From positions 15,886 through 79,885 of the forward strand of contig CAKZLY010000021.1 in the NCBI GenBank assembly GCA_937127445.1: a stretch of DNA of 64,000 bases, given 5' to 3'. The notes beneath the pieces were generated by a model. The model searched no databases. It saw only the letters and a list, made by a program, of their open reading frames with translations, and was not told the origin of the DNA. The DNA comes from an uncultured Ignavibacteria bacterium (lineage in GTDB: Bacteria; Bacteroidota; Ignavibacteria; Kapaibacteriales; UBA2268). This document shows positions 11,731 through 33,854 of the stretch, in pieces; the stretch's first letter is position 1; the number at the start of each line of letters is the position of its first letter. The translations under genes and the position numbers were made by a program.

Positions 11731-12507
11731 CTATCTGTTAATTATTAATTTTTTAAAATAAATATTGTTGTTGATGTCTAAAATTTTAATAAAATAAATA
11801 CCATTCTTTAAATTTACAAGATTAATTTTTTCGCTTGTAGGTAAATTGGTATTAAACATTAGTTCAGATAATTCATTATAAATTTCAATCTTACTGACTT
11901 TTGTGCTATTACTTACGGAAATCCAGCTATTAGATGGATTTGGAAAAACTTCAAAAATTTCTTTGTTTTCTGGAATAGAAGTAGGCACTTTTGTATATAC
12001 TACATCAATATAAATTGGCACTTTCGGTAGGTTTTCATTGTTAATTACAACAGAAGTAGTCTTTGTCATATCTGCCGAAAAGAGAAGTCCCAGTTCATCA
12101 TAAATTCTTGCAGATTTAATGTAATTTGGCAACTTATTCCACGAAATAGTTGCAACAGAAGGGACTCGTTTGTTTAAATCAATTTTGTAACGGTGGTGGA
12201 ATTCATTTTCGTCGGCGGGGACACTTCTAAAATCCTTGTAGCTGTATAGGCCTTCTATATTTATGGTATCTAAATTGAAAACAGCAAATACATCAAATGC
12301 TGGTGGTGGAAATGGCGGTATTTCTATTTCGCCAAGATGAGTATCTAATCCGTCAGTAGCCGACGAAACCGCCCCAAACACAAGAAGCGTATCGATAGCG
12401 AATGTATTATTAATTGTAAGCCGAACTTTCACATCAAATTCGTCGGCTGTTGCTTCTGAATACATAAGTATCGTAATTATTGCAATAGCAAACAGTTTTA
12501 TTTTCAT
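11731..12507 (-). CDS. Secreted protein with T9SS C-terminal sorting domain
   Basis: Signal peptide. C-terminus ...KNGIYFIKILDINNNIYFKKLIINR matches the Por/T9SS CTD pattern. Confidence 0.6.
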   Translation of the reverse strand: MKIKLFAIAIITILMYSEATADEFDVKVRLTINNTFAIDTLLVFGAVSSATDGLDTHLGEIEIPPFPPPAFDVFAVFNLDTINIEGLYSYKDFRSVPADENEFHHRYKIDLNKRVPSVATISWNKLPNYIKSARIYDELGLLFSADMTKTTSVVINNENLPKVPIYIDVVYTKVPTSIPENKEIFEVFPNPSNSWISVSNSTKVSKIEIYNELSELMFNTNLPTSEKINLVNLKNGIYFIKILDINNNIYFKKLIINR

Positions 12508-12530
12508 ATCTACCTTCCTTATTATAAACT

Positions 12531-12570
12531 AAAAACAAATGGGCATCATTTGTTGTAGATGCCCATTTGT
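12531..12570 (-). terminator. Rho-independent terminator downstream of the 1064-aa T9SS cargo gene
   Basis: ACAAATGGGCATC-loop-GATGCCCATTTGT followed by a T-tract on the minus strand. Confidence 0.65.
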
Positions 12571-12592
12571 CTTGGAAAAGATAATTAGAAAA

Positions 12593-15500
12593 TTATCTTA
12601 CAATATTGATTTTAGCTACTTCTGTGCGGTCGCCAGCAACGATTTTAACGATATAATTACCAGTTGCAAAGCGAGAAGCATCAAAAGTATATGAATGATT
12701 GCCAGCATTCAAGCTGCTGCTGAGCAATGTAGCTACTTCATTTCCAAGTGCATCGAACAACGAAATTGTAACATTTGCATTCATCGGAATTGCAAAGTTA
12801 ACGGTTGCAGTCGATGAAACTGGGTTTGGATTAACGCTCAATGTAGCGTTCAAAGTAGCATCAGTTTTTACAAGCTTGAATACATTGTAAGTAGCACGGT
12901 TGATAGTTATTGAGTTGTTGAAGCGATTGATTTCGCCAAATACTTCGCCAGTAACTACATCAACCACTTTGTATGCGCCTTTTACGTTGTCAATTGATAC
13001 AGTAAGAGGATATTTAACGCCTTGAACGCGAACAACGCCCTCGTTCTCAGTTGTCAGGTAGCTATTATCAGCAAAGCGAACATCGAACATTTCAGCAAGT
13101 GGTGCAGGTGGAAGTTCGAATGTATTGCCGCTGATAGCTAAATCATTGGATAAGTATAATGTTCCATTGTTGTTGTCGCTGTCTTTGATGCTCAATACTG
13201 ATGAGTTTGCAAGGACAGACTTCTTAACAACAGAACCATCGATTGAGTTAAGCTTGAAGCCAAAGCGTAAGTTCTGTGGAACATTTACTTTCAGATAACC
13301 AGTTGTATTAACTTTAATCCAGTATCCAAGACCAGGAAGAATTTCGGATACTTCTTTATATCCTCTGTTAGTTTCGTAAGCCCAAACACCATATTGGCGA
13401 GTGAAGGTTACATCAGGTGCATCTTGACCAGCACTTAAAGCGTCAAATTTAATGTGGTCAATACCCAGTGGAACGGAAACCGAACCAATTGTATTCCAGC
13501 CAGTGTATAGGCGGATACCATTGAATGGAGCAACATTTTTATCAAGGTCGTAGATAAATGTACCTGGGAATTTAGTATCAACGATTGAATCGTATTTTAC
13601 AAAGTAGCCAATACCAGGTTGCAAAATACCATCTGGTGGAGTTTGATATTGGTTCTGAGTAAACAATATTGGGATATTGATTGCATTCTTATAGAAGTTC
13701 GAATAATATGGATTAACAGGACGAACTGGCATTGAGAGCAAGTTCCAACCTTTCTTAATAATAGGTTCGCCAGCTTTGTTCACGTAATCAACAACAGTAG
13801 GCAATGTATACTCAATCACAAATTCTCTAACTCTTGGATCAAGAATTGTAAATGAGAATTTACCATCGCCCAATGGAGTTGCTTCGCGCATATTAACTGC
13901 TGGGAAGTATAGTCCATTTTGTCTGTCGTGAATATAAAGTTGTGAGCCAGGATAGAAATCAGTTGTATCCCAAGTTAAAATTACTGGAGTTCCATTGTTA
14001 GCTTCAAACTTGCAATAGAAGATATGTGATTTTGCAGTATAATTAAAATCACGAATATCGCGTGAGTTGGAACGACGTTGAGCTTCATTTGCTGCAAAGT
14101 CCCAGAAACCATTTGGATATTTAGCTGCCAATACTGGGTTTACAGGGAACCAACGAGCATCAAATATTGAATTGCCTTGTGGGTCTTGACCTAATGGCCA
14201 TTCGTATGGGCATTCGCCATAAAGCGTATCAATATCGTCCGATGCGCGTGTGCCAGTACCGAAGACCAACAATTTGCTTTCACCCTTGCTGTTTGATACT
14301 GTAAGTTTGATACCTGGAACGATATTCGTTTTAACAATTGGTTCAACAGGAGTTTTGAAGAGAATGAAGTTTACTTCAAGTTTAGTTGGGTTCTCATCAA
14401 TGTATGGAGTAGTGAATGTAATATGACCAGTGTAGATACCTTCTTTTTCATTATCAACTGGCGAAATAGTAAGTTTAGAAGGGTCACAATCAACTAACAG
14501 ATAAACTTCAGGATCAGGGCCAATTGGCTGACCTTTTGGATCTTTAAAGTCTTGCGAACCAAGGATTCCTACGTCGATATAGTTAATAAAGCCTTTTCTT
14601 GTAAGTTGTGGTATAGGATTTTTGGAAATTGATCCGACAGTAACAGTTTGGAAGTTCAACCAAGGTTTGTCTGATTCGACAACGATATCCTGAATACGTG
14701 TCTTTGAAAGAGCATCAGGAATTCTAACGCGTACAATGCGTTGAGCGCGACGTGGTTGAATATCTGCATTGTCAACCGTAAGTGGAGTATATATTTTCCA
14801 ATAGCCTTCGCTAATCTTCATAATTGAGTCGCTGGAAGTTGGGCTTGTGCTTTGAACAACACCAGGACCTGGCATAAAGCGGAATTCAGGAATTTTTTCG
14901 AAAATAGTAACCCAAATTGAGCCAGGGATATATCTTTCAGGATATGTTTGCCAATCAATAACTGCAGCAGGCAAGTTATCATTGCGCATACCTGTAAGAC
15001 CTGTAATAGGCAATTGATTGGTGGTTGTTCCTTCAGCGTTTGTGAATGCAAGTGATTGAGGAGTACAAGGGAAGTTATTTACAGTAAATACGTATTCACG
15101 AATATTGATGCCGTTATATTTAATAATGTCTGCATTGATGTAGATTGGAGTATTAACTGGCAAGTTTGGATTTTCTTTGTCTACCAATACTTCAAATACT
15201 ACATAGAGCAATACATTGTATTTACGGTTAGCAACAGTAGTTGCTGGGAGTGGTGTTGTCGAAGCTCCAACGATTTTGAATTTTCTACCAGCAGAAGGAA
15301 TTGCGTCTGTTCCTTTTCTTGTTGGGAAAAGATTTTTAGTATAGTTAGTATCACGCAAATCGAATGTTTGGAAATTGAAGTTTTTAGCAAGAGGTTCTAC
15401 GTAAGGAAGGAACCTATTGTCGTTTCTTGCCTGAGCTTCTTGAGCAGTAACAGGATGATGAGTTTGAATACCAACTGCTTTGAAAACATTACCATTATAC

Positions 15501-15787
15501 GAAAGAGAAAACTCAAAACTTTTGATAGGAGCAAAAGTTTGGTCTGTTACTTCTATAAATACTGGCAAAAGGAATTCACGCTTCGATTTCGATGAAGGCG
15601 GAATCCAAATTCTGCCATCGGGATACCAAGCTGTATTGTAACCGCTTAAATCGCCGGTTAAATTCAGCTGTGGTATAATTACATCGCATTGAGCCTGTGC
15701 TTCAACATATGTTGTAAGTCCAAAGACTACAACTAATATGCCGAGTAGCATTCGACTTACCCTGCGAGTTAATAAGAGTTTATTCAT
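12593..15787 (-). CDS. Large secreted T9SS cargo protein (1064 aa), function unknown
   Basis: Signal peptide with GGGGGT ribosome-binding site. C-terminal CTD ...GNYIVKIVAGDRTEVAKINIVR. Confidence 0.6.
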   Translation of the reverse strand: MNKLLLTRRVSRMLLGILVVVFGLTTYVEAQAQCDVIIPQLNLTGDLSGYNTAWYPDGRIWIPPSSKSKREFLLPVFIEVTDQTFAPIKSFEFSLSYNGNVFKAVGIQTHHPVTAQEAQARNDNRFLPYVEPLAKNFNFQTFDLRDTNYTKNLFPTRKGTDAIPSAGRKFKIVGASTTPLPATTVANRKYNVLLYVVFEVLVDKENPNLPVNTPIYINADIIKYNGINIREYVFTVNNFPCTPQSLAFTNAEGTTTNQLPITGLTGMRNDNLPAAVIDWQTYPERYIPGSIWVTIFEKIPEFRFMPGPGVVQSTSPTSSDSIMKISEGYWKIYTPLTVDNADIQPRRAQRIVRVRIPDALSKTRIQDIVVESDKPWLNFQTVTVGSISKNPIPQLTRKGFINYIDVGILGSQDFKDPKGQPIGPDPEVYLLVDCDPSKLTISPVDNEKEGIYTGHITFTTPYIDENPTKLEVNFILFKTPVEPIVKTNIVPGIKLTVSNSKGESKLLVFGTGTRASDDIDTLYGECPYEWPLGQDPQGNSIFDARWFPVNPVLAAKYPNGFWDFAANEAQRRSNSRDIRDFNYTAKSHIFYCKFEANNGTPVILTWDTTDFYPGSQLYIHDRQNGLYFPAVNMREATPLGDGKFSFTILDPRVREFVIEYTLPTVVDYVNKAGEPIIKKGWNLLSMPVRPVNPYYSNFYKNAINIPILFTQNQYQTPPDGILQPGIGYFVKYDSIVDTKFPGTFIYDLDKNVAPFNGIRLYTGWNTIGSVSVPLGIDHIKFDALSAGQDAPDVTFTRQYGVWAYETNRGYKEVSEILPGLGYWIKVNTTGYLKVNVPQNLRFGFKLNSIDGSVVKKSVLANSSVLSIKDSDNNNGTLYLSNDLAISGNTFELPPAPLAEMFDVRFADNSYLTTENEGVVRVQGVKYPLTVSIDNVKGAYKVVDVVTGEVFGEINRFNNSITINRATYNVFKLVKTDATLNATLSVNPNPVSSTATVNFAIPMNANVTISLFDALGNEVATLLSSSLNAGNHSYTFDASRFATGNYIVKIVAGDRTEVAKINIVR

Positions 15788-15807: not shown

Positions 15808-16980
15808 TTAATATTTTATTAGATTTTTTATAATTTTCTCTGCTTTACTATCTATTTCTACAATATAGATACCACGTGCAAATTTTTCTGCATTAATTCG
15901 TATGTGATTTTCGTATGTATTTTCTAAAAATATCATTTTACCATTAATATCGTATATTCTAACAATTTTTTCATTGTCGTTGTCTGTTTTTATTGTTATG
16001 CAATCACAAGTTCGGTTGTAATAAGCAATTGCTTCTGCACTTTCTTCAACTACTGTTGTTGTATCTGGGATATCTGATACAAGTTCCAGGTTGTTGTTTT
16101 CATATTGAGTAACACAGTCGCAATCGCCAACTATGGCATTATCAACTGAAATCCAGCCACTTGTCCTGCCAATATCGCTATTATTCATTATGTCAATAAT
16201 CAATGTGTCTTTTAGAACTTGATTATTAACTGATATAGCCATCTTTACCAAGCCATTTTCTTGTGAAATACTATTTATCACAATATTATCGTTGCTTGGC
16301 TCAATACGAGAGATTTCAAATGAACTGCCCATTTGCATTAAATCCAGCTTAACATTGCTAACCTTTTTCCCGTTGCTATTCAATACGAGCTTCGTTTGCT
16401 TTGTACCTTTATCATTGAAACTCAGCTGGTTATCACTAAATAGCACTGTGAATTTTCTATCAGGTTTATCTGCGATAACAGCTTCGACCATTGCGTTCTG
16501 TGGTTCAGCGATATCTTTTTTGAATTCCTCGGTAAATGCAATGTACGAAAGACTTACTTCCGAGGTATCGAAGCAATCGCCGAGCCAAATGCCTTGAATA
16601 GCAAGCAGTGGCAAGTCGCCTTCCACAGGTGCAAGGAACGGATTTAGATGCCCTGCAGTCCCATAAATAGCGCTATCGGCTGCCGAAATTGTAAATTGCT
16701 TTATTTCAAAGAACTCTGACAATGTACCAAAGGTACTGACAAAATTGAATTTAATTTTCGAAGGGTCATACTTTATTTCGAAATTATAACCGAATAAAGA
16801 ATCTGCCTTCGTAATCTTACCAATTGTCAAAAGAACTAAAACTTCGTGTTCGTCAATATTTTCGCATACATCTATTTTTTTAACGCTTTTAAGCGTTGGC
16901 ACTATCGTGTTATTTTGGGCTACAAGGCTGCTGAACAAAGTAACTATCAGCAGCCCGATGCCGCAAATTCTTTTCAGCAT
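15808..16980 (-). CDS. Secreted T9SS cargo protein (390 aa)
   Basis: Signal peptide. CTD ...RGIYIVEIDSKAEKIIKNLIKY. Confidence 0.55.
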   Translation of the reverse strand: MLKRICGIGLLIVTLFSSLVAQNNTIVPTLKSVKKIDVCENIDEHEVLVLLTIGKITKADSLFGYNFEIKYDPSKIKFNFVSTFGTLSEFFEIKQFTISAADSAIYGTAGHLNPFLAPVEGDLPLLAIQGIWLGDCFDTSEVSLSYIAFTEEFKKDIAEPQNAMVEAVIADKPDRKFTVLFSDNQLSFNDKGTKQTKLVLNSNGKKVSNVKLDLMQMGSSFEISRIEPSNDNIVINSISQENGLVKMAISVNNQVLKDTLIIDIMNNSDIGRTSGWISVDNAIVGDCDCVTQYENNNLELVSDIPDTTTVVEESAEAIAYYNRTCDCITIKTDNDNEKIVRIYDINGKMIFLENTYENHIRINAEKFARGIYIVEIDSKAEKIIKNLIKY

Positions 16981-18917
16981 TATCTCGAAACAACAACTTT
17001 GTTCGAAACAGTGTTTCCATTACCAGTCAAACGGTAAATATATACTCCGTTCCCAACTTTCTTGCCAGCTTCGTCTGTCAAATTCCAGTTGAATGAATAT
17101 TGTCCAGCTTTGAGCGTACCTTTGTGCAATACTTTAACCAAGTTACCTTGTGCATCAAAGATTGCCAATTCGTAGTTGCTGGAATTATCAATGCTAACAG
17201 CAATATTAGTAGTTGAATTTGCAGGATTTGGATATGCAGCCATTATCAATTCATCGCCTGCAATACCTTCTGCAAGTTTAATTTTTACGCTTTCAATATC
17301 ACGTTCGTTAAATCTAATATTGCTTGCATTAATTTCATTATTATTTGTTGCAACAGTAACATAAGCGAATGGTTTATTAGCAGCAAATTCTCCAACACCG
17401 CTAATTACAACATTATTTTTACCATTCATTGCAATAACATTTTCATCATTTGTGTTAACTGCTACAACTTCACCGTCTAATTGAAATTTAGCACCAATTG
17501 GACCAGCAAAATTAGCATCCACATAAACTGGGATATTGTAAGTGTTTTCATTTACTCTTGTCCATTCGCCGAAACGAATTGATGCAATTTCATTATTAAC
17601 TTTGCCGTATTGAGGAACTGTGTCCCAAATCCAAGGCAAATATGGGATTCTGCCTGAGATGTAAGCAATAATCAATGCTGCATCATATTCATCTGCTTGG
17701 AACATAATTTGTTTGAGTGAGCTGATGTCTGTAATTCTATGCATACTATCAGCATAGTTCATTGTTCTCCAAGGAATAGATTTTCTATTACCTAATGTAT
17801 CATAGTAGAAGCGACCATTATGATTGACATCAGCGTGATATGCTGCACGGCGGCGAATTGAATCGAGAGGAACGTTTGTAGCAATTGCTCTCATCACAAG
17901 ACGAGCATCGTTGATTGTTACAAAACGATTTTGTGGTTTATTGTAGTGTGGTTCACCGGCTGCTTTCGAAAAATCAACATCACCGTCTCCCCACCATTCA
18001 GCTATGTTGAAGCGTTTTTTAGCACGGAGGAAAATTGATAGCGCATTGTTTCTTGTTGGAGTCCATTCAGTTGTTTTAACTGTATCAGTAACAACTTTTA
18101 CTGGATCGTATGGTAGATATCCGCCATTAAACAATGCGTTCATAAAGTCAGCTTTCTGCAAAAAGCCTTTCCCTTCGCCTTTAATACCAACAGCACAGTT
18201 GTTAGTAAACAATCTTTCGTCGAACCCTGGCAGACCTGTTTGCCAGTAAGGGATTTGTTCAGTACGTTTACCAACTGTACCATAGCGGAATTCTATATCG
18301 CCTTGTGCAGAATATGGGTCAGTTGACTTATAAAGAATCAATTGGAAGTCAGCAACACTTGCTTTGAAATCTGGGAAATAGTTAATATTTAAATTTTTCC
18401 ATTCGATTGTAAATTTATCTGGTTCGCTCTTGTAAGAAATTGTAGTAGGAGCATAACCTTTGAACTTCACGCTGTCTGGACGGAAATAGTGGTCTCCCCA
18501 GAAAGGAGCAATAACGTTAACTGGATATGATGGATCATCATAGAACATAGCATTAGGATTCTTTGTCCCAGCGATTAATGTTGGAGGACCTTCCAATGTC
18601 CCGTTGATAGTAACTTTACCGAAAGTAACAAAACCATTAACGTTAATCCAAACTTTTGTGAAAACTTCGCCATTAAACTCGAATGGGAATGGAAGTTGTA
18701 CTTCTGCATATCCATCATCGAGATCTAATGTATTATTAGGTGGGACCACGAAATTTTGATAAGGAATTGCAGTGCCACCTTGGAGGAATTCAAAAGGACG
18801 ATTCACCAATTGAACGCCTTCGAACTCACCAAAAACTTGCGCTTTCAATTGCTTACCCGGGAATACAGTCATCATCAGAACCAAAATCCCGGTAGCAAGG
18901 AAAAATAATCTTCTCAT
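16980..18917 (-). CDS. Secreted T9SS cargo protein (about 645 aa)
   Basis: Start at MRRLFF with a GGAG ribosome-binding site, signal peptide. CTD ...GVYIYRLTGNGNTVSNKVVVSR. Confidence 0.55.
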   Translation of the reverse strand: MRRLFFLATGILVLMMTVFPGKQLKAQVFGEFEGVQLVNRPFEFLQGGTAIPYQNFVVPPNNTLDLDDGYAEVQLPFPFEFNGEVFTKVWINVNGFVTFGKVTINGTLEGPPTLIAGTKNPNAMFYDDPSYPVNVIAPFWGDHYFRPDSVKFKGYAPTTISYKSEPDKFTIEWKNLNINYFPDFKASVADFQLILYKSTDPYSAQGDIEFRYGTVGKRTEQIPYWQTGLPGFDERLFTNNCAVGIKGEGKGFLQKADFMNALFNGGYLPYDPVKVVTDTVKTTEWTPTRNNALSIFLRAKKRFNIAEWWGDGDVDFSKAAGEPHYNKPQNRFVTINDARLVMRAIATNVPLDSIRRRAAYHADVNHNGRFYYDTLGNRKSIPWRTMNYADSMHRITDISSLKQIMFQADEYDAALIIAYISGRIPYLPWIWDTVPQYGKVNNEIASIRFGEWTRVNENTYNIPVYVDANFAGPIGAKFQLDGEVVAVNTNDENVIAMNGKNNVVISGVGEFAANKPFAYVTVATNNNEINASNIRFNERDIESVKIKLAEGIAGDELIMAAYPNPANSTTNIAVSIDNSSNYELAIFDAQGNLVKVLHKGTLKAGQYSFNWNLTDEAGKKVGNGVYIYRLTGNGNTVSNKVVVSR

Positions 18918-25000: not shown

Positions 25001-27030
25001 CCATAGAATTGCAAGGAGCCATTGACGCCACCTGCACCAGTGATGATTGTATTTCTCTTTGAATATACAGCTCCACCGAATGAAGAAGCTATGTTATTTA
25101 CAAATTTAATATCAAACCCATAATCACGTGTATTCCAAGTGTTGTCGTGACCACCGATAACAGGGGATACTAAATTATAAACATTACCATCAACATAAAT
25201 TGCACCACCAGCACCAGCTTGGTTGTTTACAAAGTATGTTTGATTAGCAATTGTCAATGCAGCATCAACATCTGATCTTACTTTGAGTGCATCGCGTTGA
25301 CCGCCACGAATTTGAATGCGGTTCAGCGTGTTTTCAGCGAATATAGCACCACCCATCGAGAAGAAGCCGTTTCCAGATTCTGCATTGTTTGCACTTACAA
25401 GGAATGGAGCTTTAGTTTGGTTGTTTTCAAACTTACCGCTGAAAATAACGCTTGTATTAGCACCAACATAAATTGCACCACCACGAGCACCGAATGAGCT
25501 CATATGTCCTTGATAGTTTGAAGCTTCGTTGTTGGTTACTTCTAATGCGTCGTTATAACCAGGGTCTAATTCAACAACGTTTCCGTTGATAAGTAATCTG
25601 TCGTTCAAACCCAATGCAATTTCCATGCGGCGGTTTTCATTAGCTTCGTTACCTGCAATGTAGAGTGCACCGCCGAAAGCTTTATTGCCATAAGCAAATG
25701 GATAATCTGCGGCAACGTCGGTAAGTTCAGTTACAACTGTAACAGGAGGAACAGTATTTAATACTTTTTGTCCAACTTTTGCAAGGATAACTTTATTTCT
25801 GTCGAATTTCACATTACGGACACGACCTAAATAAACTGCTATACGAGCGTCGTCCCAAGCCATACGTTCAAGATCGAGAAGAGGTTCTGCAGTCGGATCG
25901 TCAATATTGTCAATTAATGGAATTTTGTAGCTTTTATTGATTTCAGAAATGTTTCCATTGCGATCAGTTAACTGTGGGTTTTTAGCATCTGGATAGTATG
26001 CAGTAGGTGTATTATAAACTGGGTAACCCTCTGGGGCTTGCAAAATTTGCAATGCACCGCCCCGAACACGAGCAATATTATCTTTGAAAGTTACATTAAT
26101 AAGCCAAGTTCTTGACGAGAATGTAGTCAAAGCACCGCCAGCACCATTAGCCAAACTCTTAATTCTATTCATCAAAGCGTTATATTCAAATGTATTCAAG
26201 CCTGGAAGGTCGCTTTGAGCATAGTAAGGATGACGGTCAACAGTTGTATCTTTCTTGAAGTTTTCAAATACTACATTACGGAAGAATGCAGCGCGAGCGC
26301 CTGGAAGCACAACGATATGTCCCCATTCACGTGAGAAATTATTCACTGGCTGGCCAATGAAGCGGATTCTTGATTGTGTGAAAGGAACTGCTGCGCCACC
26401 AAATCTCTTCCAAGGTGATGTTTTCAGGTTTGGATCATTTCCTGGATTTAAGTATAAACGAGCTGCCTGGAATGCGATTGCATATTCGAAAGGAATAATC
26501 ACATAACGTGGGTCAGTAGGCAAATTGTTAGGATCCAAGTTTACAATCTTGCGAGCAACTGTGTCCAATACAACATTGAAAATATGGTTGTATTTACTTG
26601 GATGAACGGTTGGGTCGCGACGTGTGTTATACGATAATGTTCTTGTCATACCATCATCGTATAAGAAATAGCGCATATCAGCATAACCAAAACCACCTTG
26701 GTCTGCTGGATATGTTGTTACAGGATCTGGAACTGCAGTTTGGTCGTAAGTAATACGAGCAAAACCGTCAGCAATGATACGACCGCCTGTTGAGTCGATT
26801 AAGCAGCTGTTGTCAAGGAATTTTACTGTTGTCCCTGGTTCAATAATAAGAGTACCGCCGACAACAAGCTTTTTGTTGATTACGTAAATTGAGTCTCTTT
26901 GGAACACTCTTACTTCTCCGGGAGCGATGCTGCCGGAAACGTAAGCAGTTGGCAACTGTGCATATCCTTCAACGCCAAGGAATATGCATAGTAACGCTGC
27001 CAAGAAACTCATACGAAAAAATCGTTGCAT
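19009..27030 (-). CDS. Giant secreted T9SS cargo protein (~2673 aa): Pmp-like beta-helix, 7-bladed BNR/Ycf48-like beta-propeller, Ig-like domains
   Basis: GGAGGT ribosome-binding site before MQRFFRM, signal peptide. Repeated GGA[ILV]Y / FxxN motifs. Seven TT(D/N)GGxxW(T/D) Asp-box repeats. CTD ...SGTYNVRLVAGESVSVFPVVVVR. Confidence 0.7.
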   Translation of the reverse strand: MQRFFRMSFLAALLCIFLGVEGYAQLPTAYVSGSIAPGEVRVFQRDSIYVINKKLVVGGTLIIEPGTTVKFLDNSCLIDSTGGRIIADGFARITYDQTAVPDPVTTYPADQGGFGYADMRYFLYDDGMTRTLSYNTRRDPTVHPSKYNHIFNVVLDTVARKIVNLDPNNLPTDPRYVIIPFEYAIAFQAARLYLNPGNDPNLKTSPWKRFGGAAVPFTQSRIRFIGQPVNNFSREWGHIVVLPGARAAFFRNVVFENFKKDTTVDRHPYYAQSDLPGLNTFEYNALMNRIKSLANGAGGALTTFSSRTWLINVTFKDNIARVRGGALQILQAPEGYPVYNTPTAYYPDAKNPQLTDRNGNISEINKSYKIPLIDNIDDPTAEPLLDLERMAWDDARIAVYLGRVRNVKFDRNKVILAKVGQKVLNTVPPVTVVTELTDVAADYPFAYGNKAFGGALYIAGNEANENRRMEIALGLNDRLLINGNVVELDPGYNDALEVTNNEASNYQGHMSSFGARGGAIYVGANTSVIFSGKFENNQTKAPFLVSANNAESGNGFFSMGGAIFAENTLNRIQIRGGQRDALKVRSDVDAALTIANQTYFVNNQAGAGGAIYVDGNVYNLVSPVIGGHDNTWNTRDYGFDIKFVNNIASSFGGAVYSKRNTIITGAGGVNGSLQFYGGKYPVIFQNNKAGYYGGALAFNIPNNVGMDPFKRLIQVVRANFDGNIVGENVADVNKPDIRGGGAIYSLNGDLNLVKGSLFINNKVYNGNGGAIALANPITTIHKIFVTDLDVVHYDMYDAKDGFAIGYTSVNEPFTYSNAPIVADVRMLTRFLDNTIILDNGIIDSQMGSGTTQIGKGTPLPSDHINAIYWLDNKEGYAVGNNGMIVKFSNGGAKWDFMPSNTNVDLTDIYFTSDDIGYAVGAYTTILKTTNKGQTWTKLTVPSITNDPKINDILFVGTQVGYAVADEGYILKTTDAGGNWTVKRPATRNLQSVAWVGVNKGYAVGDRGLILYTTNGGDNWDVQIMPGLTSDLNYIMFKSATVGFATGKAGVMIKTVDGGNTWDFVNSGTDQELKSIFFYGQNIGYAVGASGTIVKTTDGGNNWTALTSGTTNTLNSVYFVNNNEGFVSGNVGLLLATKDAGATWSQVTPADMALIDVKRWHKETNLPENGVGLGGAIYLLDKATLDRTNRIDAVLFNRVRIQNNVAFTGSAIYSDNYDLKLIFNRSLVTGNKTDERNTIGMSQNYISGPVIKDASNTTIGNFASSDLAPATIYGEVQGPLPSYIFSEAANSFYGNTARFMIRLPDAPNTKGVLAGTTGIGAGGTDTLRGNYWGHTEANVLLNIENNHNSPELARMETFFVNIAPADQYNVVNADANYLPFLFQTSSDPRTQGPFESIDKYNYTPIVLKNGQDENTVGDNSIAEKYLMSGHIYDIYDKGTDIKTADYTKRRMSPIEDFAVGIAPKVKRYSVANAPSNGKYIKRYLRDPFAVEARDDQGNLKYPFLSQVQGEWKPDETGRYYHPIGYPLFLETMIDYNTGEVEKNNHDTRMLNESVFFVINETTGDYIRVNFKQVGEDANYREIFRARVELVPDSSNRNPNSSIRRSAEGLLNLGSNGLFPFAPYSNPVLLEKLYRDAYNEDAAALQGRKYHADSNALAKVFNLFSNRPSMPNNNRTFVGTTPVSNTTYFAGERYRALPVDTGDVVRIISRTVLWREGVLAAYNDGIVFKVTRSTMPPVFTGDLARLAQDTVIKIVDSEFNPGQKDTLIITDFINKIFVTEDRTYPAANGTYTGRGYDRGRDSILTVTAIDSNMFYDPRSLLHPNQYSNLLYNWLVDDNSGLKRWLLVDTLAATYQKDNASGYFMFKGQPLNPYVVPGGEDLYLEVRSFPPHYRSVDVLKALNTPQDIIDQFVNIFPKYISNPIYDVTNARYLQQDTIDFASNYLTRQAVKVFVVDSAPRFLEPGTTLGAAMVKVNKNSSDFVMKDYLPTVYTCGKTATGKLKANLTDRLRFKVDFNTDDELEDSWALDWDYRYGRTSYGFMNVAMRGGDAPDTVVFGMKQLRPIWMSNQYMVKYDNPTVADPYGFDFLSKGQLHYSIDRTTALGLLRRNDQNPTSLINDTVFAIVANDGHGGVTEKLLDVYINYAPEILTDALPNAQEGVDYNLSMMDSTRIVKVFDANTGERLIFALAYDTYPTDSIAIDPCFPEAGKVYVERKTPKWLKINAESGLLYGTPGMQDAPKDEKVTVIVTDENGLSAVKTLNLKVLPMNHTPELSGVPAVECIDQGEPWEAFITLKDLDLARTNSDEVITLTLVKPSDPTKLNITPSSIRGPLSKADTTIRIWTNNFNLNRDPDGKVTIRIEARDRAGKVAVLEFRLQLSLPTDFLVPVTVANAMGANQTLVFGTAPNGATTGDGTDGDNVGTIDYDLCEFEIPPYPPNDVFDARWSIPSRNGLHRNIYPRALTGQSGERVYRGRFQAGGERTTGSGSLLYPVTITWPKSAVPAKNDPVNPTGASWYIRDAYSNGNLFSVDMKTGAVRNSQNVIVESSVSGNPDLARITILSDAIDAFIIIYDMATSVDGQNDITESRINSVSPNPVRAATNINFNIANATNVTMEVFDNLGNKVATIINAPYNAGSYNVEWNAVDVKGSLLPSGTYNVRLVAGESVSVFPVVVVR

Positions 27031-27130
27031 GTTACCTCCAAAATGTGAAAATTTTGTTATAAAATCTATGTTGCTTAAAAAATCTATGTTCATTTTGCAT
27101 CATATAATATTAAATATACATAAATACGTT

Positions 27131-27856
27131 TTATTCAATAATCGTGCCAAGTCGAGCAAGTTCAATTTTAGCTGTATTTGCAAATTCTGCGAAATCACGA
27201 TTTTTTGCAATCATTGTTAGATGCTCTATTGCGCGATCTTTTTCTCCCATACGTGCATAGCAAATACCAGCAAACAGCATATAACGTCCTTTCGATGTTG
27301 GGTCGATAGCTAATCCTGCTGCTTTTTCGTAATTTTCCGCTGCATCGCTTAAATTATTGTTCTTCTCACTGCAAACAGCCAGCCCAGCGTAACCACCTTT
27401 TGAGACTTCATCGGATTTTGCTTTTGCAGCAATTTCAAAGTATTTACGCGCTTCTGATATTTTGTCCAATGCAAAATAAGCATCTCCTGCGAGCAATGCA
27501 GCAATTTCCCCTGACGGAGTTGATGAATATTCTTCAACAATTTTCACAAGACCTAATACTTTCTCTCCTCTAACGGTTGGAACAGAGTCGCCTCCAAACA
27601 ATGCGCGAGCATATTCTTCTTTGTCGAAATACGGTCTAATTCTCGAAAGCGCCAAAGCTGCTTCTTCTTTATTTTTATTGCTCGTATATGTAAAATAATA
27701 TGCAATAGCTACTATTGCTACCACTGCAACCGCTGCTATTGCTATCAATTTACCATACTTTTGAATAAAATTAACCTCGCCGCCTTCTTCCTGAACCTGA
27801 TTTTCAAGTTCGTCATCTAAATTCTGTTCATTTTTGTTATTAATCTTGTCGCTCAT
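27131..27856 (-). CDS. TM-anchored tetratricopeptide-repeat protein (YfgM-like)
   Basis: Acidic N-terminus, one TM helix (LIAIAAVAVVAIVAIAYYF), then TPR-like helical repeats. Confidence 0.5.
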   Translation of the reverse strand: MSDKINNKNEQNLDDELENQVQEEGGEVNFIQKYGKLIAIAAVAVVAIVAIAYYFTYTSNKNKEEAALALSRIRPYFDKEEYARALFGGDSVPTVRGEKVLGLVKIVEEYSSTPSGEIAALLAGDAYFALDKISEARKYFEIAAKAKSDEVSKGGYAGLAVCSEKNNNLSDAAENYEKAAGLAIDPTSKGRYMLFAGICYARMGEKDRAIEHLTMIAKNRDFAEFANTAKIELARLGTIIE

Positions 27857-27893
27857 AAATCCTTTATTTTATTAATGATACTAATTTTCTTTG

Positions 27894-27967
27894 CACGCCC
27901 GAAGGGACTCGAACCCTTAGCCTTTGGAACCGGAATCCAACACTCTATCCAATTGAGCTACGGGCGC
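27894..27967 (-). tRNA. tRNA-Arg (anticodon CCG)
   Basis: Manual cloverleaf folds cleanly: acceptor GCGCCCG/CGGGCGU (G1-U72), D-arm GCUC...GAGU, anticodon stem UUGGA/UCCAA with loop UUCCGGU, T-arm AAGGG-UUCGAGU-CCCUU. Confidence 0.8.
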
Positions 27968-28149: not shown

Positions 28150-28191
28150 AAGAAAAGAAAAGGGAGCTATAATCTCTTACAACTCCCTTTT
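28150..28191 (-). terminator. Rho-independent terminator of the 1828-aa giant gene
   Basis: Minus strand: AAAAGGGAG-loop-CTCCCTTTT followed by TTTTCTTTTCTT. Confidence 0.6.
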
Positions 28192-28208
28192 CAATTTATT
28201 AATCTACG

Positions 28209-31200
28209 CTATTTCACAACTTTTAGGGTTGTTGTTGTAGAATAGTTACCAGCATTAACAACAACAGTGTAGGTGCCTGCTGTCAGGTTTCTGAGGTCCA
28301 ATCTCAATTGATTTTCACCTGCGGCAATCGAGCCAAACGATTCAGCAAAAACTTTGCTTCCAGCAATATTATAAATTCCTACTAATGCTGAACCTTCAAC
28401 AGGTGAGTAGAACGAAACGTATGCATAGTCTTTCGCAGGATTTGGCGAAATTCCAGAAATTTCGAATGCACCATCACCCTCAATTGTTACTACTCTTGTG
28501 TTGCTATATGAAAATTCACCATTTTGGTCAATCATCTTCAATCTATAAGCATATGACTTACCAGCAGAAACGCTTCTATCGATAACTGGACCATATTCAG
28601 TAGCAACTGCTGAATTACCTTTTGCCTTAACTTCATCAATTTTAGCAAATGCACCAATACCGAATTCATTAACTTTTGCTTTTTCAATATCAAATCTTGA
28701 TGAATTTACTTCTGATGCACTTACCCAGTTAAGTTCGACACGTTTTCCAACAGCATTAGCATCAAACGAGAACAGTTCGATTGGAATAATTGTTCCGCCA
28801 TTGTTCTGAACATAGTCCATCGAAGCGCGAATGAGAGCATCTGCCATTGGGAAATGTCTCCAATCAAGCCCGAAGTAAATCACATTTGTAAACAGCGATG
28901 ATGATGCAATACACATAATTTTTTGATCGAACATTATTGTGTCAGGATTGATATAGAACATACCAACACGTGCAACACCTACACCGCTTTCAGTCATATT
29001 CACTACGTCGCCAACAGGTTTCGGATCGCCAAGGAAGCCAGTTGGAACTGCTGCAAAATCGATATTGCGAGCAACTGCGAAACCACGAACCACTGATAAT
29101 GAATCGAACGGACGTGTTACCTTTGGAGTTGCTCTTAATATCTTTTCTGTGAAGTATGTTCCATCAAGGTATTGAGGAATACCATTTTGACGAACAACAT
29201 CTTGGCTTGCAATGATAAAGTTGCTCTTATCGTTCAATTTCCCTTTGTTTAAGAATTTCAAAACATCGCCGATTACGTAGGTTGTGTACATTTTATCGTT
29301 AGCATCACCAAAGAAGAGCGAACGATACATTGTATAGTTTACCGAACGTTCTTCCCAGCCGCGGCGATCGAAAATATCGAAGTCGTGGTCTGCTTCACCC
29401 TTCATCTGGAACCATCCGATTCTACGGAATGCAGTAATCAAAGTATCAGCATTCAAACGTCCAGCAATTTGGTCCATCTGCTGTGGTGTCGGGTTCGAAA
29501 CGGTATCGATATTCACAAAGCTATTTTCTACAGATAAGAGCAAATCGAGCTTAGCACGTTTCAAATAGAAGCGAACAATTTTATCTTCGAGCACATTGTT
29601 CGAAGTCATTTCATCTGGTTGAGCAAGGCTTACTCTTATTCTATAACGAGGAGTAACATTAGGCAGCATTGTAGAGAAGTGTTGAGGAACATTGTATCCA
29701 ACAACTTGCGAGTAAGTGAGTGGAATAAAGTCGTCGTTGTCTTTACCATCACCCAATCCGAATACTACAACAGCATCATCAGTTGGGCTAATCTGAGCAG
29801 TAACGATTTTAGGAGCAACTGCTGGAATAACGAAGTTGCCTAATGTATCTTCGCGGAATATTTCTACTTTTATTTGAGCAGCTGATTGGAGCATATTACC
29901 ATTGTTGCGAACAATTGCTTTGACTTCAACCGGCGACTGCGTCATAATGTATTCAGCATCATTGAAAAGCGATGTTAGACGTAGGTCTTGATAAGCACCA
30001 GGAGCTACGATCGAGTGAATTTCTATATCGTTATTGAGCAATCTACCATTGAATTCGCAAGCGCCAATATCATAACGTTGATTTGCAAAACCACGTAAAT
30101 TACCATCAATATCAGAGCTTAATACATCATATCTTGTACCACGGTTGTTAATCTTAGAGTTAATTGGAGTTGGGTTCGATTTTACTCTCAAATTGCCAGG
30201 ATTGGAACCAATCATTTCGTGATCTTGCAAGAAGTTGTAGTCAACAGAATAAATATCGCAACCAGTCCAATATCTCCATTGGTTCAATGTTTTGAATTCT
30301 CCAGTAAAGCCAAGAGTGAGCAAGTTGCGTTCAACATCTACTTCAATATAGCGATAATAGTCAATTCCGCTTGCAAGCCAGAACGCATTACGTTCAATTT
30401 TAGTACCATCTTCTTTTGGTTTTTCGTTGTAATAGAATACAGCGGTTTTTGTTTCAACAGAACTTGCAATGTTATCGTCCAGAATTGCAATAGCGTTGTT
30501 GCCCATAGTCAAATCTTTGTTCTGCATTACAGCAATGCCAGCAATATTACCAGTGTTGGCAAACTGATCGTTTGGAATAATTATAGTATTGTTAATAATT
30601 TTATCTTCACGAGTAAAGAAACCAGCTTTTGCTGGTGAAAGTATTCTATCGTTAAAGTTTGGCACATTAATGTTACGAGCAGTAGCAAGATAAATACCTG
30701 CAATGTGAGCAGCAGCGTTATTAACCTTCAAATCGTAGATCATATTATTTACAACTACGAATTTTTCTTTGTCTTTCGGGAAGAATTGAGTGCGTGTTGC
30801 ACCTTCCTGCAGTGTATAAGAAGCCTGTTCAATTTTCACGCCGAAAGTAATAAACGATGATTTAATATTGCTGATTTCGTTACCATCAATTCTAATATTG
30901 TTATTGTGATATCCCAAAAATCCTGCTTTGTCTTCGCCACCGACAATAATACCTGCTGCATCGCTTGTTGTAGCATTAATATTATATATACGGTTCTGAG
31001 CAATCAATGTATTTTCTTCGTAGCCAACAAAAATACCAGCACGTCCAACATCATAAATTTTATTCTTGATAAATTTGTTATTGTTGTTCAAATACTTGGT
31101 AATTGTTACTTCTGGACCTCTAATTTTATCCAAAACGCCCAAGCCAAGAGAAACAATACCATAACCGAATTTTGTAATTTCGTTGTTCTCAATTACTATA

Positions 31201-33695
31201 TTATTAATGTTAAGAGTATCCAGCTTGTAATAGTTATTTTGAGTGCTGGTGAAGAATGGTGGAGTGTTCCTTAATACAAAGCCAGCAGAATAAGTCCCAG
31301 ACGTACGAACATTTTCTTCGAATGTATAAAGGCTACGGTCTGCAATAAATTCGAATTTTACATTTGGGAGACTCGAAGCATACGAAGTTGTGCTGCTTTC
31401 GCCATCAACAATACAGTTCTTAACAGTAATGTTGCGAGAACCATTGCTGAAATAGAACGGAACGCGGAACATTACAGATGGCGGAGTATGCATTTTGAAG
31501 ACAAGTGATTTTTGAGGACCACCGTCAAATACAATATATCCATCGCTTGCTGCATAATCGTTCTTATGTTCGTTCAATACCGAATTAATCGGAGCAAACG
31601 CAGATGTTTGATTATGATTCTGACCAAACAAAATCCCAATACCTGATGCGCTATAAAGATTGACGACCACACTTGCACGATTTGCCATTTTCTGTTGCGA
31701 AGGACGAATAATTATTTTAGCGTTTTCTGAAGCACCAATAATCTTGGTTCTCAAATCAAGTGCAGGGTATGATAAATTTATATCCCCTAAATTGTATGTA
31801 TCATCTTCTAATTCCAATACAACTTCGCCAGAAATACCCTTTTTGTAAATTTCGTCAAATGCTTGAGAAAGGCTTGTAAAATTATTGCTTCCTGTGCAAC
31901 TCGAACAAACTTTGTACGTTCCAACCAATCCAGATTTAACAACAAACGTTGTTGTATAAGTATTGTCAACAGGATTACCTTCTGATGGATGGTCTATCAT
32001 TATTGTTGCTGTATATGTCCCAGTAGCAGTTGGAACAAACTCATTCGGGAAACGAACTATTTTATATGGTGGAAAGGTCGAAGGAATGATATCGATATCT
32101 GTTTGATCCTGGAAAACAACCTGCCCCTGTGAGTTGGTAATAGTAATAGTTGCTAATGCACCAAAAATATCTTCGAAACCATTGTTCTGCACTCTAATAA
32201 CCACAGGTTGTGGACGCAATTTGTAGTTATCGCTTGCAGTAGGTGAAAACAATGTATCAGGCTGAGCATCAACACCGTAAGTAACCTTAAATATATGTGG
32301 CGTTCCACCCATCGGAGGGAAGAAATCGTTTGATGGATTTAGATCCTGCGAGTTAAGCAAGTATACTCTTACGCGAACTTCATACTCGCCAACTTCTGTT
32401 GGAGCAAAATTCTGGAAGAAAATTGTTGTGTTTGTCCCAGGTTGTAGCGGTGCAGTTTTATTTACCCATATCACATTTGGTGGCTGATGAACTAAAACGT
32501 TATTTTTGTAAATTCTGCATTCAACGCGGAACGAATCAACAGGATTAATTCCAGAGTTTTGAACTGTAATTCCAAGAGGAATTGTTGTACCAGAAAGTGG
32601 ATATTTTGTGAACTCTTTTTTAAGCGGATATGGTATGCCCAATGCAACCAAATCCCACGGTAACGCAATATAAAACTTTTGTTGGAAATCTTGTGTCAGA
32701 TCAGGTCTTCCTTCTACTTCAAATCGAGAATAAATAGTATATTCACCACTCGCAATACCAGGATTTGATAGGTCAAGCTGACCGGTTGGACCCTCCAGCG
32801 GATCAACATTTGCTGCAATACCTTTTGCATGAGTAAATCTATAACGAACAGGGTTAGGATCTCCAACAATTGTCAATGGAATTCTTGTTACACTCAAATT
32901 ACCTTCTGCTGTTGCAACATAAATAGTATCTGGATTTGGACTTGTCGATGGGCCTACAATAGCATAACTTACGTAAACAGTTGGTTGAATAGAAGCACGT
33001 TTAATATTTACAGATGGATGATTGTTGTGTTCAAATGGGATTACTGAACCCGCTGTCAAAACTGTTGAAGCAGGCGGATAAACAGCTGTCATTTGAGGAT
33101 TTGAAAGAATTTCTATTCTTGCATTGGGACGTGGTACTGTTCCAGCGCTTGTCCCAGAAAAAGTCAAAGCACATCCGTCGCCATCTCCGTAGCGAACATG
33201 GGCTCGCCCAGAAATATTAGTGCCATATACGTTTGTTATCGCTCCATAATTTGAGTTATTATAGCAAATTTTCACTAACAAGTTTCCGCCAGTATAATTA
33301 AAGTAATTTGCTGGCTGAAAACTAAATTTATTCCACCCAGAAGAAGTTACTGTGTATGAAGGAGTGGAATATACAAGTTGCCATCCAGAAGCAACAGGAG
33401 CTGATATCGAGGTCAACGTTGTATTCTGCATATATATGGAAAATCCAGCATAAGAAGCATATGTAGGACTTATCACATTAATCGAGAATCCTCTAATCAA
33501 TCCAGGATTGCCACCGGCACCAATGATTTCAGCAGCCGTATACAAATAAAAGCAAGCTGCATCTGGATTATCATTAAACGGATAAAAACTTGTAACTGTT
33601 CCCGTTCCAATCTGGATTTCTTGAGAACGAACAGTCCCAGCAAGCACTGAAAGCACTATTGCTACAATGCTAAACCATCTTAAAAATTTTCTCAT
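28209..33695 (-). CDS. Giant secreted T9SS cargo protein (~1828 aa) with parallel beta-helix repeats
   Basis: GAGAGG ribosome-binding site before MRKFLRW, signal peptide. Periodic N/I-rich beta-helix repeats. CTD ...GTYTVVVNAGNYSTTTTLKVVK. Confidence 0.65.
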   Translation of the reverse strand: MRKFLRWFSIVAIVLSVLAGTVRSQEIQIGTGTVTSFYPFNDNPDAACFYLYTAAEIIGAGGNPGLIRGFSINVISPTYASYAGFSIYMQNTTLTSISAPVASGWQLVYSTPSYTVTSSGWNKFSFQPANYFNYTGGNLLVKICYNNSNYGAITNVYGTNISGRAHVRYGDGDGCALTFSGTSAGTVPRPNARIEILSNPQMTAVYPPASTVLTAGSVIPFEHNNHPSVNIKRASIQPTVYVSYAIVGPSTSPNPDTIYVATAEGNLSVTRIPLTIVGDPNPVRYRFTHAKGIAANVDPLEGPTGQLDLSNPGIASGEYTIYSRFEVEGRPDLTQDFQQKFYIALPWDLVALGIPYPLKKEFTKYPLSGTTIPLGITVQNSGINPVDSFRVECRIYKNNVLVHQPPNVIWVNKTAPLQPGTNTTIFFQNFAPTEVGEYEVRVRVYLLNSQDLNPSNDFFPPMGGTPHIFKVTYGVDAQPDTLFSPTASDNYKLRPQPVVIRVQNNGFEDIFGALATITITNSQGQVVFQDQTDIDIIPSTFPPYKIVRFPNEFVPTATGTYTATIMIDHPSEGNPVDNTYTTTFVVKSGLVGTYKVCSSCTGSNNFTSLSQAFDEIYKKGISGEVVLELEDDTYNLGDINLSYPALDLRTKIIGASENAKIIIRPSQQKMANRASVVVNLYSASGIGILFGQNHNQTSAFAPINSVLNEHKNDYAASDGYIVFDGGPQKSLVFKMHTPPSVMFRVPFYFSNGSRNITVKNCIVDGESSTTSYASSLPNVKFEFIADRSLYTFEENVRTSGTYSAGFVLRNTPPFFTSTQNNYYKLDTLNINNIVIENNEITKFGYGIVSLGLGVLDKIRGPEVTITKYLNNNNKFIKNKIYDVGRAGIFVGYEENTLIAQNRIYNINATTSDAAGIIVGGEDKAGFLGYHNNNIRIDGNEISNIKSSFITFGVKIEQASYTLQEGATRTQFFPKDKEKFVVVNNMIYDLKVNNAAAHIAGIYLATARNINVPNFNDRILSPAKAGFFTREDKIINNTIIIPNDQFANTGNIAGIAVMQNKDLTMGNNAIAILDDNIASSVETKTAVFYYNEKPKEDGTKIERNAFWLASGIDYYRYIEVDVERNLLTLGFTGEFKTLNQWRYWTGCDIYSVDYNFLQDHEMIGSNPGNLRVKSNPTPINSKINNRGTRYDVLSSDIDGNLRGFANQRYDIGACEFNGRLLNNDIEIHSIVAPGAYQDLRLTSLFNDAEYIMTQSPVEVKAIVRNNGNMLQSAAQIKVEIFREDTLGNFVIPAVAPKIVTAQISPTDDAVVVFGLGDGKDNDDFIPLTYSQVVGYNVPQHFSTMLPNVTPRYRIRVSLAQPDEMTSNNVLEDKIVRFYLKRAKLDLLLSVENSFVNIDTVSNPTPQQMDQIAGRLNADTLITAFRRIGWFQMKGEADHDFDIFDRRGWEERSVNYTMYRSLFFGDANDKMYTTYVIGDVLKFLNKGKLNDKSNFIIASQDVVRQNGIPQYLDGTYFTEKILRATPKVTRPFDSLSVVRGFAVARNIDFAAVPTGFLGDPKPVGDVVNMTESGVGVARVGMFYINPDTIMFDQKIMCIASSSLFTNVIYFGLDWRHFPMADALIRASMDYVQNNGGTIIPIELFSFDANAVGKRVELNWVSASEVNSSRFDIEKAKVNEFGIGAFAKIDEVKAKGNSAVATEYGPVIDRSVSAGKSYAYRLKMIDQNGEFSYSNTRVVTIEGDGAFEISGISPNPAKDYAYVSFYSPVEGSALVGIYNIAGSKVFAESFGSIAAGENQLRLDLRNLTAGTYTVVVNAGNYSTTTTLKVVK

Positions 33696-33854
33696 TAATA
33701 ACCTCTCAAATAGTAACAAAATATATTTTTATGCTCACTAAATAATTGCAAATAGCAAGTTACATTAAAATTAACAATTTTTATAGAAATAAATATAATG
33801 ATAATATAACAAATTTATAATAAAATTGTTACAAAAGAAAAATAAAAATAAAAA

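Follow-up and report, generated by a model that had tools for sequence, protein, structure and literature searches.

The window, by which we mean the whole 64-kb stretch of DNA analyzed, carries six consecutive minus-strand genes between 11731 and 33719, each encoding a protein with a signal peptide and a type IX secretion system (T9SS) C-terminal domain (CTD) of type A (TIGR04183). These genes, A to F, are presented with their neighbors in Table 1. The first-pass annotation had described an array of T9SS cargo genes with two giants (2673 and 1828 aa), interrupted by a TM-TPR protein and a tRNA-Arg, and the ORF coordinates agree with this layout. It had also placed the organism close to Ignavibacteriota/Calditrichota. 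The assignment to the FCB group with flagellar genes stands, but the organism is labelled Candidatus Kapabacteria, a neighbor of Ignavibacteriota/Calditrichota proper. The pairing of swimming with T9SS cargo, which the first-pass annotation had inferred, was already documented in Melioribacter roseus (PMC3534657), and flagella have been predicted in Kapabacteria (PMC7509429).

Table 1. Features of the cargo locus and its surroundings (positions in the window; aa, amino acids).
Feature	Position	Strand	Description
Flagellar genes	4035-8612		two flagellins, FliS, FliD, FlaG
GT9	8800..9867	-	heptosyltransferase-like glycosyltransferase; last gene of usual conserved block
X	9876..10643	-	255 aa, secreted; signal peptide and aromatic-rich C-terminus in family consensus
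GT2	10669..11727	-	polyprenyl-phosphate sugar transferase, ArnC/PgfS/AglJ type; starts 3 nt after A
A	11731..12507	-	258 aa; shared pre-CTD module and CTD
B	12593..15787	-	1064 aa; N-terminal half of unknown family, pre-CTD module, CTD
C	15808..16980	-	390 aa; weakly cohesin-like N-terminal domain, conserved cysteines, CTD
D	16980..18917	-	645 aa from NCBI start; ORF 16980-18953 = 657 aa
E	19009..27030	-	2673 aa from MQRFF at 27030; ORF 19009-27093 = 2694 aa
E pre-CTD module	19261..19878	-	aa 2385-2590; motif ...GE.E.PP.PP...FD.RW; also in A and B
E core	20671..23583	-	aa 1150-2120 (~970 aa); best-conserved region of E; without known family
E propeller	23581..24453	-	aa 860-1150; seven-bladed Ycf48/BNR-type, inserted in repeat region
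TM-TPR protein	27131..27856	-	241 aa; N-terminal TM helix and TPR_21 (PF09976); first gene of conserved operon
tRNA-Arg (CCG)	27893..27967	-	36 nt upstream of TPR gene
Terminator-like hairpin	28157..28192	-	intrinsic type; 16-bp stem then T-run; 17 nt past F stop codon
F	28209..33695	-	1828 aa from MRKFL at 33695; ORF 28209-33719 = 1836 aa

Using the curated TIGR04183 cutoff of 23 bits, the CTD (approximately 70-80 aa) proposed for every array protein was recovered in all six, with scores of 40.1 (A), 34.5 (B), 32.1 (C), 48.0 (D), 26.3 (E) and 33.5 (F). The PF18962 cutoff was passed by five of the six, the exception being E (23.3 versus 27). Inspection of the six N-termini confirmed the signal peptides: each is positively charged, runs into hydrophobic residues and has a cleavage site of AxA-like form. 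Most orthologues of the exported proteins carried an AxA|Q-like site, which was rare or missing among the TPR and GT2 controls. Structures predicted with multiple sequence alignments of homologues gave the cargo CTD an Ig-like beta-sandwich as in solved CTDs. Six CTD genes in a row are far above chance expectation. On these HMM matches the six proteins are classed as T9SS type A cargo, which would be secreted by that system. An O-glycosylation motif was only modestly enriched and is given no weight.

Related loci were detected in 106 cases, and the 80 species-level loci examined all came from MAGs labelled Kapabacteria or Ignavibacteria. E-D-C-B-A, with the TPR gene first, was present in the same order and with the same gene sizes in 80/80, and wherever a locus extended far enough, the TPR gene lay directly upstream of E. 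Conservation of this synteny shows that the clustering of CTD genes is under selection. The ArnC-like GT2, X and GT9 usually come after A; in a minority of loci they do not adjoin the cargo genes, and so they may be housekeeping LPS genes. Judged from these sequences, TPR-E-D-C-B-A (27856 down to 11731), usually continued by GT2-X-GT9 (to 8800), is an ancient Kapabacteria operon. F does not belong to it, and the notion of a single array of six was given up. In relatives an E1 dehydrogenase gene takes the place of F upstream of TPR, only three full-length relatives of F were found (92, 80 and 34% identity; 5.8 billion proteins searched), and the terminator-like hairpin sets F apart from the tRNA and operon that lie downstream. 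By these features F, which gave weak Beta_helix and CARDB matches, is a separate, lineage-specific, fast-evolving predicted T9SS cargo in its own transcription unit.

The 290-kDa protein E is made up, in order, of an N-terminal domain, Pmp-type repeats, an optional propeller, a novel core, Ig-like modules, the pre-CTD module and the CTD. The Pmp-type repeats, inserted Ycf48/BNR propeller and Ig-like modules that had been read from the sequence alone were supported by HMM matches. The repeats (11 GGA[ILV] and 20 FxxN motifs) matched PF02415 (28.2 bits versus 20.6) and TIGR01376 (21.2 versus 15), the propeller matched PF14870 (PSII_BNR/Ycf48; E-value 7e-32, 111 bits) and the Ig-like modules matched He_PIG (26.6 versus 24). 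Although E resembles the chlamydial Pmps in these repeats, Pmps are autotransporters with a C-terminal beta-barrel, whereas E carries a T9SS CTD and approximately 1500 residues of unrelated domains. Membership of the Pmp autotransporter family was rejected, as no autotransporter match was found and only the repeat type is shared.

The propeller has the seven blades claimed for it (at approximately aa 889, 930, 974, 1014, 1056, 1097 and 1138, spaced 40-44 aa), but the strict TT(D/N)GGxxW motif occurs in three of them, the rest having the looser form (S/T)x(D/N)(G/A/K)GxxW. A GGAIYLL rung at aa 1173 indicates that the repeat region resumes past the propeller. By comparison of orthologues, the propeller is a dispensable insertion (missing from 11/33 sampled) and the least conserved part of E, its 37-45% identity being the lowest of any stretch within the N-terminal two-thirds of the protein. 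Orthology with the photosystem II assembly factor Ycf48 was rejected with the NF010237 equivalog (112 bits versus a cutoff of 326); its place inside a secreted protein, as an insertion that a third of orthologues lack, also speaks against this. The first-pass annotation had highlighted the propeller and read E as an adhesin or polysaccharide-binding architecture. Two corrections follow: the conserved part is the previously unannotated core, and since length and sequence are conserved across the clade (more than 100 full-length homologues, 44-50% identity), E is not a typical fast-evolving adhesin.

The core was confined to the E family in a search of 1.84 billion representatives, with no Pfam or PDB relative, and neither its profile nor that of the repeat region matched anything in the PDB. 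The high conservation of aa 1150-1750, where numerous Asp, Glu, Arg and His positions are invariant, is reminiscent of an active site. Lyases are frequent among beta-helix proteins, and the propeller gave a weak NCBIfam match to the F510_1955-family glycosylhydrolases. These features would suit an enzymatic giant, its beta-helix/core acting as a polysaccharide lyase, hydrolase or protease in feeding or cell-wall/matrix remodelling with D to A as accessories. An enzymatic domain could have been missed because the predicted model of the core is of moderate confidence (pLDDT 73.5), but we consider an enzymatic E improbable. The pre-CTD module was common to A, B and E by blastp, with hhalign probabilities of 98.4-99.3% between copies and no PDB match.

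With respect to the smaller cargo proteins, D shows strong full-length conservation among orthologues and consists of a NIDO-like N-domain (signal below the family threshold), a helical region, a beta-sandwich and the CTD. The helical region contains two invariant Asp/Asn-rich loops, WGDGDxD and DVNHNGR, followed by helices; considered as candidates for the duplicated Ca-binding F-hand of a dockerin, they gave no dockerin HMM or PDB match, and the region has pLDDT values of 35-77 in the predicted model. Foldseek against the PDB matched only the C-terminal sandwiches of D, leaving its confident N-domain without a structural relative. In the predicted model, the CTD and preceding sandwich superpose on the C-termini of PorU and PorZ, these fold matches being to generic beta-sandwiches. 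The start of C overlaps the D stop by 1 nt, and the CTD profile of C matches the CTDs of NucA, RemZ and RemA. Cohesin PF00963 was detected in 4/44 C orthologues (best E-value 1.5e-3) and 1/39 B orthologues, all sub-threshold. B contains the shared pre-CTD module at aa 493-677 and a second partial copy at approximately aa 860-985, and a CTD was detected in 38/39 of its orthologues, while A was found in most loci. PDB profile searches with full-length D, C and B returned only CTD matches and a weak cohesin match for B (E-value 0.33). As no family threshold was reached, the proteins carry no enzymes and the structural matches are unspecific, similarity to cellulosomal cohesin-dockerin systems is a lead and not membership.

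The TM-TPR protein matched PF09976 (32.3 bits versus 25.5), which we take to be the YfgM-like TPR_21 family, and has a hydrophobic TM helix at approximately aa 36-58. GT2 matched PF00535 (E-value 6e-36) as well as NF007986 (5e-58) and NF047588 (6e-53), the latter two below their equivalog cutoffs; it is 56-69% identical in relatives and is linked to the cargo genes in the majority of loci that extend far enough. GT9 matched PF01075 (E-value 1e-11) and, below cutoff, TIGR02193 and TIGR02195 (both 1e-14). X is probably a small outer-membrane beta-barrel, given OMP_b-brl matches in 6/31 orthologues (best E-value 1.6e-4), and its profile matched nothing in the PDB. Assignment of X to PorP/SprF, PorT, PorQ or PorG was rejected, with no NCBIfam T9SS-component match at E-value <= 0.1 among the 31 orthologues.

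In Flavobacterium johnsoniae the giant gliding adhesin SprB is encoded in a multi-gene operon, sprCDBF, and E resembles it in being a giant, repetitive T9SS-type surface protein whose operon also encodes helper proteins. The cargo operon also adjoins flagellin, fliS, fliD and flaG in the window, and the C-terminal tandem of D recalls PorU and PorZ, T9SS components which keep their CTDs. On these grounds the proteins might be SprB-like moving adhesins, a flagellum-associated structure or accessories of the T9SS attachment complex, but this is very improbable on the remaining evidence. SprB has a type B CTD (PMC9143113) and a cognate PorP/SprF-like barrel, whereas the Kapabacteria proteins have type A CTDs, X is not PorP-like and flagellar genes are present. 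NCBIfam T9SS-component and SprA models matched nothing on E, D or X beyond the CTD, and a role for E as SprA/Sov or another machine part was rejected. Flagellins follow GT9 only in the closest relatives of the window (loci L001, L002 and L008), and FlgD_ig matches fell on the CTD fold only; a general functional link between the operon and flagella was rejected.

A further alternative is that the proteins are independent adhesins or polysaccharide binders whose genes stay together through co-regulation or genomic inertia. Folds of the beta-helix, BNR-propeller, Ig and cadherin-like kinds typify adhesins and glycan binders, the sequences of C and A diverge quickly (20-33% identity) and the neighboring F is clearly a stand-alone variable cargo. 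We think this unlikely, as gene order and sizes are invariant over 80 species, E and D are strongly conserved over their full length, A, B and E have modules in common, the supposed glycan-binding propeller is dispensable, and no CBM, SusCD or glycoside-hydrolase context was found around the cargo genes in the window and the stretches read beyond it. The sequences show the CTDs and signal peptides, the conserved gene order, the pattern of conservation and the confinement to one clade. Secretion, attachment to LPS, association of the proteins with one another and any structural role are inferred, and we slightly favor the reading that E-D-C-B-A form a co-expressed, LPS-anchored multi-protein surface assembly. 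Counting against an assembly, conserved synteny can arise from co-regulation without complex formation, the cohesin, dockerin and NIDO signals are sub-threshold with generic beta-sandwiches as fold matches, and none of the T9SS machinery genes, among them those for SprA/Sov, PorV, PorU, PorZ and PorK-N, was found in the window or the flanks read (approximately 3.7 kb left and 10 kb right).

For such an assembly, the five cargo proteins would be exported by Sec, their signal peptides mostly exposing Gln at +1, and would then pass through the T9SS by means of their type A CTDs. By analogy with characterized type A cargo, a PorU-type sortase probably cleaves them and links them covalently to a glycan of lipopolysaccharide. 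At the cell surface they would most likely constitute a structural or adhesive assembly of fixed composition, with E as the main element and D, C, B and A as module-sharing partner or connector subunits, possibly joined through contacts of cohesin/dockerin type. The TPR protein, anchored in the membrane, may act as a periplasmic chaperone for the giant E, and the Und-P-sugar transferase, the small barrel and GT9 may supply or modify glycan for anchoring or glycosylation. Whether this extends to a class-wide, LPS-anchored five-subunit apparatus of S-layer rank around E, with its own TPR chaperone and glycan-supply genes, is more doubtful, and we put it forward tentatively.

One of the closest known parallels is found in Tannerella forsythia, where TfsA and TfsB are T9SS type A cargo, co-transcribed and glycosylated S-layer proteins (PMC4175972, PMC8550257). 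Like the products of the Kapabacteria operon, they are surface proteins of large size that are encoded together and bear type A CTDs, and glycosylation genes are relevant to both; TfsA/TfsB are T9SS-dependent and build a structural layer. In contrast, the operon encodes five proteins and not two, one of them of 2673 aa, with no detectable sequence similarity, and its products are known from genes of uncultured organisms rather than as a lattice. Porphyromonas gingivalis carries a coat of A-LPS-anchored cargo attached by the PorU/PorZ/PorV pathway (PMC8545088, PMC5562754). The type A CTDs, the linked LPS-type glycosyltransferase genes and the superposition of D on PorU/PorZ C-termini are points of likeness, but in P. 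gingivalis the cargo consists mostly of enzymes and its genes are dispersed, whereas the Kapabacteria cargo is non-enzymatic by every search and encoded in one operon.

T9SS cargo has usually been studied singly, with individual enzymes or adhesins taken from a small number of cultured Bacteroidota. Here a fixed set of five cargo proteins and a TPR protein, usually with glycan genes, is kept across an uncultured class that is frequently found in hot-spring mats, bioreactors and subsurface aquifers; the core of the giant subunit is unique to its family. If the five form one structure, it would be a defining surface feature of Kapabacteria and, with Tannerella as the first, a second case in which the T9SS builds a layer of the cell envelope. 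The operon would then also serve as a clean phylogenetic marker and its proteins as targets for structural work; if not, the locus is only a group of genes for hypothetical surface proteins that is well conserved. In the literature searched, the E-A operon was not described and no paper on T9SS in Kapabacteria was found. A MAG from one Kapabacteria paper with metatranscriptome data has 21 COG4447 genes, none of which could be mapped to the E-A locus.

As regards the tRNA-Arg, the gene calls upstream of TPR in the examined relatives include no tRNA. In the window, a TATATTTG motif lies approximately 35 nt upstream of the tRNA-Arg.

Minus-strand open reading frames of 258, 1064, 390, 657, 2694 and 1836 aa were found across the 22-kb array, and all six products passed TIGR04183, the T9SS type A sorting domain model (40.1, 34.5, 32.1, 48.0, 26.3 and 33.5 bits; curated cutoff 23 bits), with five of the six also passing the Pfam PF18962 cutoff. 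A signal peptide was recognizable in every protein. The first-pass annotation had described six consecutive minus-strand cargo genes, interrupted only by a small TM-TPR gene and a tRNA-Arg; these profile searches of the C-terminal sorting domains (CTDs), together with the ORF and tRNA content, bear this out, the interruptions being a 241-aa gene (TPR) and tRNA-Arg(CCG). When internal ATG starts were used, the two giants were of the sizes claimed, at 2673 aa (E) and 1828 aa (F), the former also being the length in the NCBI annotation. As automated labels of "T9SS type A sorting domain-containing" or "YCF48-related" are already attached to these proteins, their cargo status is not new.

The window DNA matches contig DAISZF010000009.1 of MAG GCA_036824935.1, and cluster mates of at least 90% identity carry the label Candidatus Kapabacteria bacterium. 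The operon described below is also carried by the complete Kapabacteria chromosomes OY762428.1, OY761611.1 and JAVSMQ010000001.1. Three distant E homologues were looked up, and all three had the neighbourhood TPR-E-D-C-B-A-GT2-X-GT9, where A to E are cargo genes and the last three lie downstream of A (TPR 236-242, D 637-652, C 351-400, B 1043-1114, A 253-265 and X about 255 aa). A profile search with D retrieved 106 species-representative genomes, all MAGs, labelled mostly Kapabacteria, Kapaibacterium or Ignavibacteria. Over the 80 loci kept of these 106, the order TPR-E-D-C-B was constant wherever the contig was long enough, A came next in most, and GT2-X-GT9 followed in most loci with room. 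In the window, neighbouring genes of the operon are separated by -1 to 85 nt, and a search of the gaps from TPR to GT9 found no terminator-like site. Operons of the Kapabacteria type also occur in records labelled "uncultured Hyphomicrobiales", Chloroflexota, Desulfobulbaceae, Candidatus Didemnitutus and Chloroherpeton thalassium (loci L011, L013-L015, L017, L018, L020-L022, L028, L032, L076 and others); mislabelling, or contamination of the bins, is the probable cause.

The F gene is missing from the loci of relatives, where an E1-dehydrogenase gene stands upstream of TPR. A set of 5.8 billion proteins yielded only three full-length F homologues (92, 80 and 34% identity), a terminator with a 16-bp stem lies 3' of F, and flagellins follow GT9 in the window's nearest relatives only. 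The six cargo genes, though adjacent as first described, therefore do not form a single array: five belong to an ancient operon, and beside it lies one unrelated, fast-evolving cargo gene. The class-wide operon and the family-exclusive core of E appear to be undescribed in the literature searched.

The architecture proposed for E was likewise recovered, with 11 GGA[ILV] motifs, 20 of the FxxN type, a PSII_BNR/Ycf48 match (E-value 7e-32) whose seven blade motifs lie within aa 889-1145, and a He_PIG Ig-like domain. The propeller sits inside the repeat region, since a further GGAIYLL rung occurs at aa 1173. A homologue search gave 298 matches, of which more than 100 were full length, at about 2650-2790 aa with 44-50% identity and 100% coverage; there was also a shorter form, about 2390 aa long. 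Size variants were seen for E (about 2206-2214 aa in L064, L067 and L079) and for D (917-945 aa in L084 and L086, with D at about 10 kb), and these indels, beyond the propeller, could be used to map dispensable domains.

A module of about 180 aa directly before the CTD is common to A, B and E (hhalign probability 98.4-99.3%), and a search for PDB relatives of it found none. Orthologues of C have conserved cysteines and, in 4 of 44, sub-threshold cohesin matches; the cohesin, dockerin and NIDO signals in operon proteins are leads only. The TPR product has an N-terminal TM helix and passes PF09976 (TPR_21), the family of YfgM, a Sec-associated periplasmic chaperone. GT2 is a polyprenyl-phosphate sugar transferase (ArnC/PgfS/AglJ-like) and GT9 is heptosyltransferase-like. 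X has a signal peptide, a C-terminus rich in aromatics and weak OMP beta-barrel matches. By a crude heuristic applied to orthologues in L003-L087, Gln occupied +1 of the signal-peptide cleavage site in 56/65 E, 68/76 D, 38/45 X and 53/69 B proteins, compared with 6/66 for TPR and 0/46 for GT2.

From these sequence features we somewhat favour a scheme in which Sec would export the five cargo proteins, whose orthologues mostly have the +1 Gln of the Bacteroidetes Q-rule (PMC5837995), and the T9SS would then carry them across the outer membrane. By analogy with characterized type A cargo (PMC8545088), the CTDs would be cleaved and the proteins joined to LPS glycan by PorU/PorZ, giving a joint surface assembly, structural or adhesive in role, of which E would be the main element. 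Gene order is fixed, sizes are constant, modules are shared, catalytic domains are lacking and E is unusually well conserved; together these features speak for joint action over independent adhesins or enzymes. That the five are independent adhesins is unlikely, and that E harbours an undetected enzyme is less likely still. A precedent for such a surface assembly is seen in Tannerella forsythia, whose S-layer depends on the T9SS (PMC4175972). Neither the window nor the stretches read past its ends contained T9SS machinery genes; that five proteins have kept their type A CTDs in over 80 species argues indirectly that the pathway is in use. Though its host is uncultured and its function putative, the operon offers those who study the T9SS and the cell envelope a solid lead that can be tested.

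Melioribacter roseus is a documented case of flagella together with Por-CTD cargo (PMC3534657), and for Kapabacteria flagella have been predicted (PMC7509429). A role of the operon tied to motility or to the T9SS itself is very improbable; X gave no match to T9SS component models. Adjoining the flaG-fliD-fliS-flagellin cluster are genes for FliW, CsrA and a CheY-like response regulator, of which FliW-CsrA is a flagellin translation-control module.

Positions of features in the window and in contigs read past its ends
Feature	Window	Other contig	Strand
rmlC, rmlA (left end)	479-2009		
FliW (PF02623), CsrA (PF02599), CheY-like regulator	2063-3429	L088 5266-6632	
Six cargo ORFs	11731-33719		minus
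TATATTTG	28003-28010		minus
Low-GC patch	40001-42410		
Methyltransferase-like ORF	41263-41874		minus
Overlapping ORF	41868-42410		minus
Flippase, peptidase, guanylyltransferase (right end)	58213-61532		
Further cargo gene		L089 17653-20202	

The Bacteroidota -7 promoter consensus is TAnnTTTG. It is fitted by TATATTTG, about 35 nt upstream of tRNA-Arg. The tRNA might share this promoter with the operon, but the motif is common in AT-rich DNA. GC content falls to 0.30 at 40-42 kb, where the first of two overlapping ORFs resembles DNA methyltransferases such as CcrM in their C-terminal part only; the patch may be horizontally acquired, with a frameshifted methyltransferase inside. Surface-glycan genes are abundant in the window besides GT2 and GT9, with dTDP-rhamnose genes at one end and, at the other, a Wzx-like flippase (weak HfsF match in the window, PF01943 in its L089 counterpart), an M50B-type peptidase and a mannose-1-phosphate guanylyltransferase. 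CTD cargo is frequent in this genome; on L089, a near-identical JGI contig, a further cargo gene about 7 kb past the window's right end encodes 849 aa with N-glycanase_C and a faint Por_Secre_tail match.
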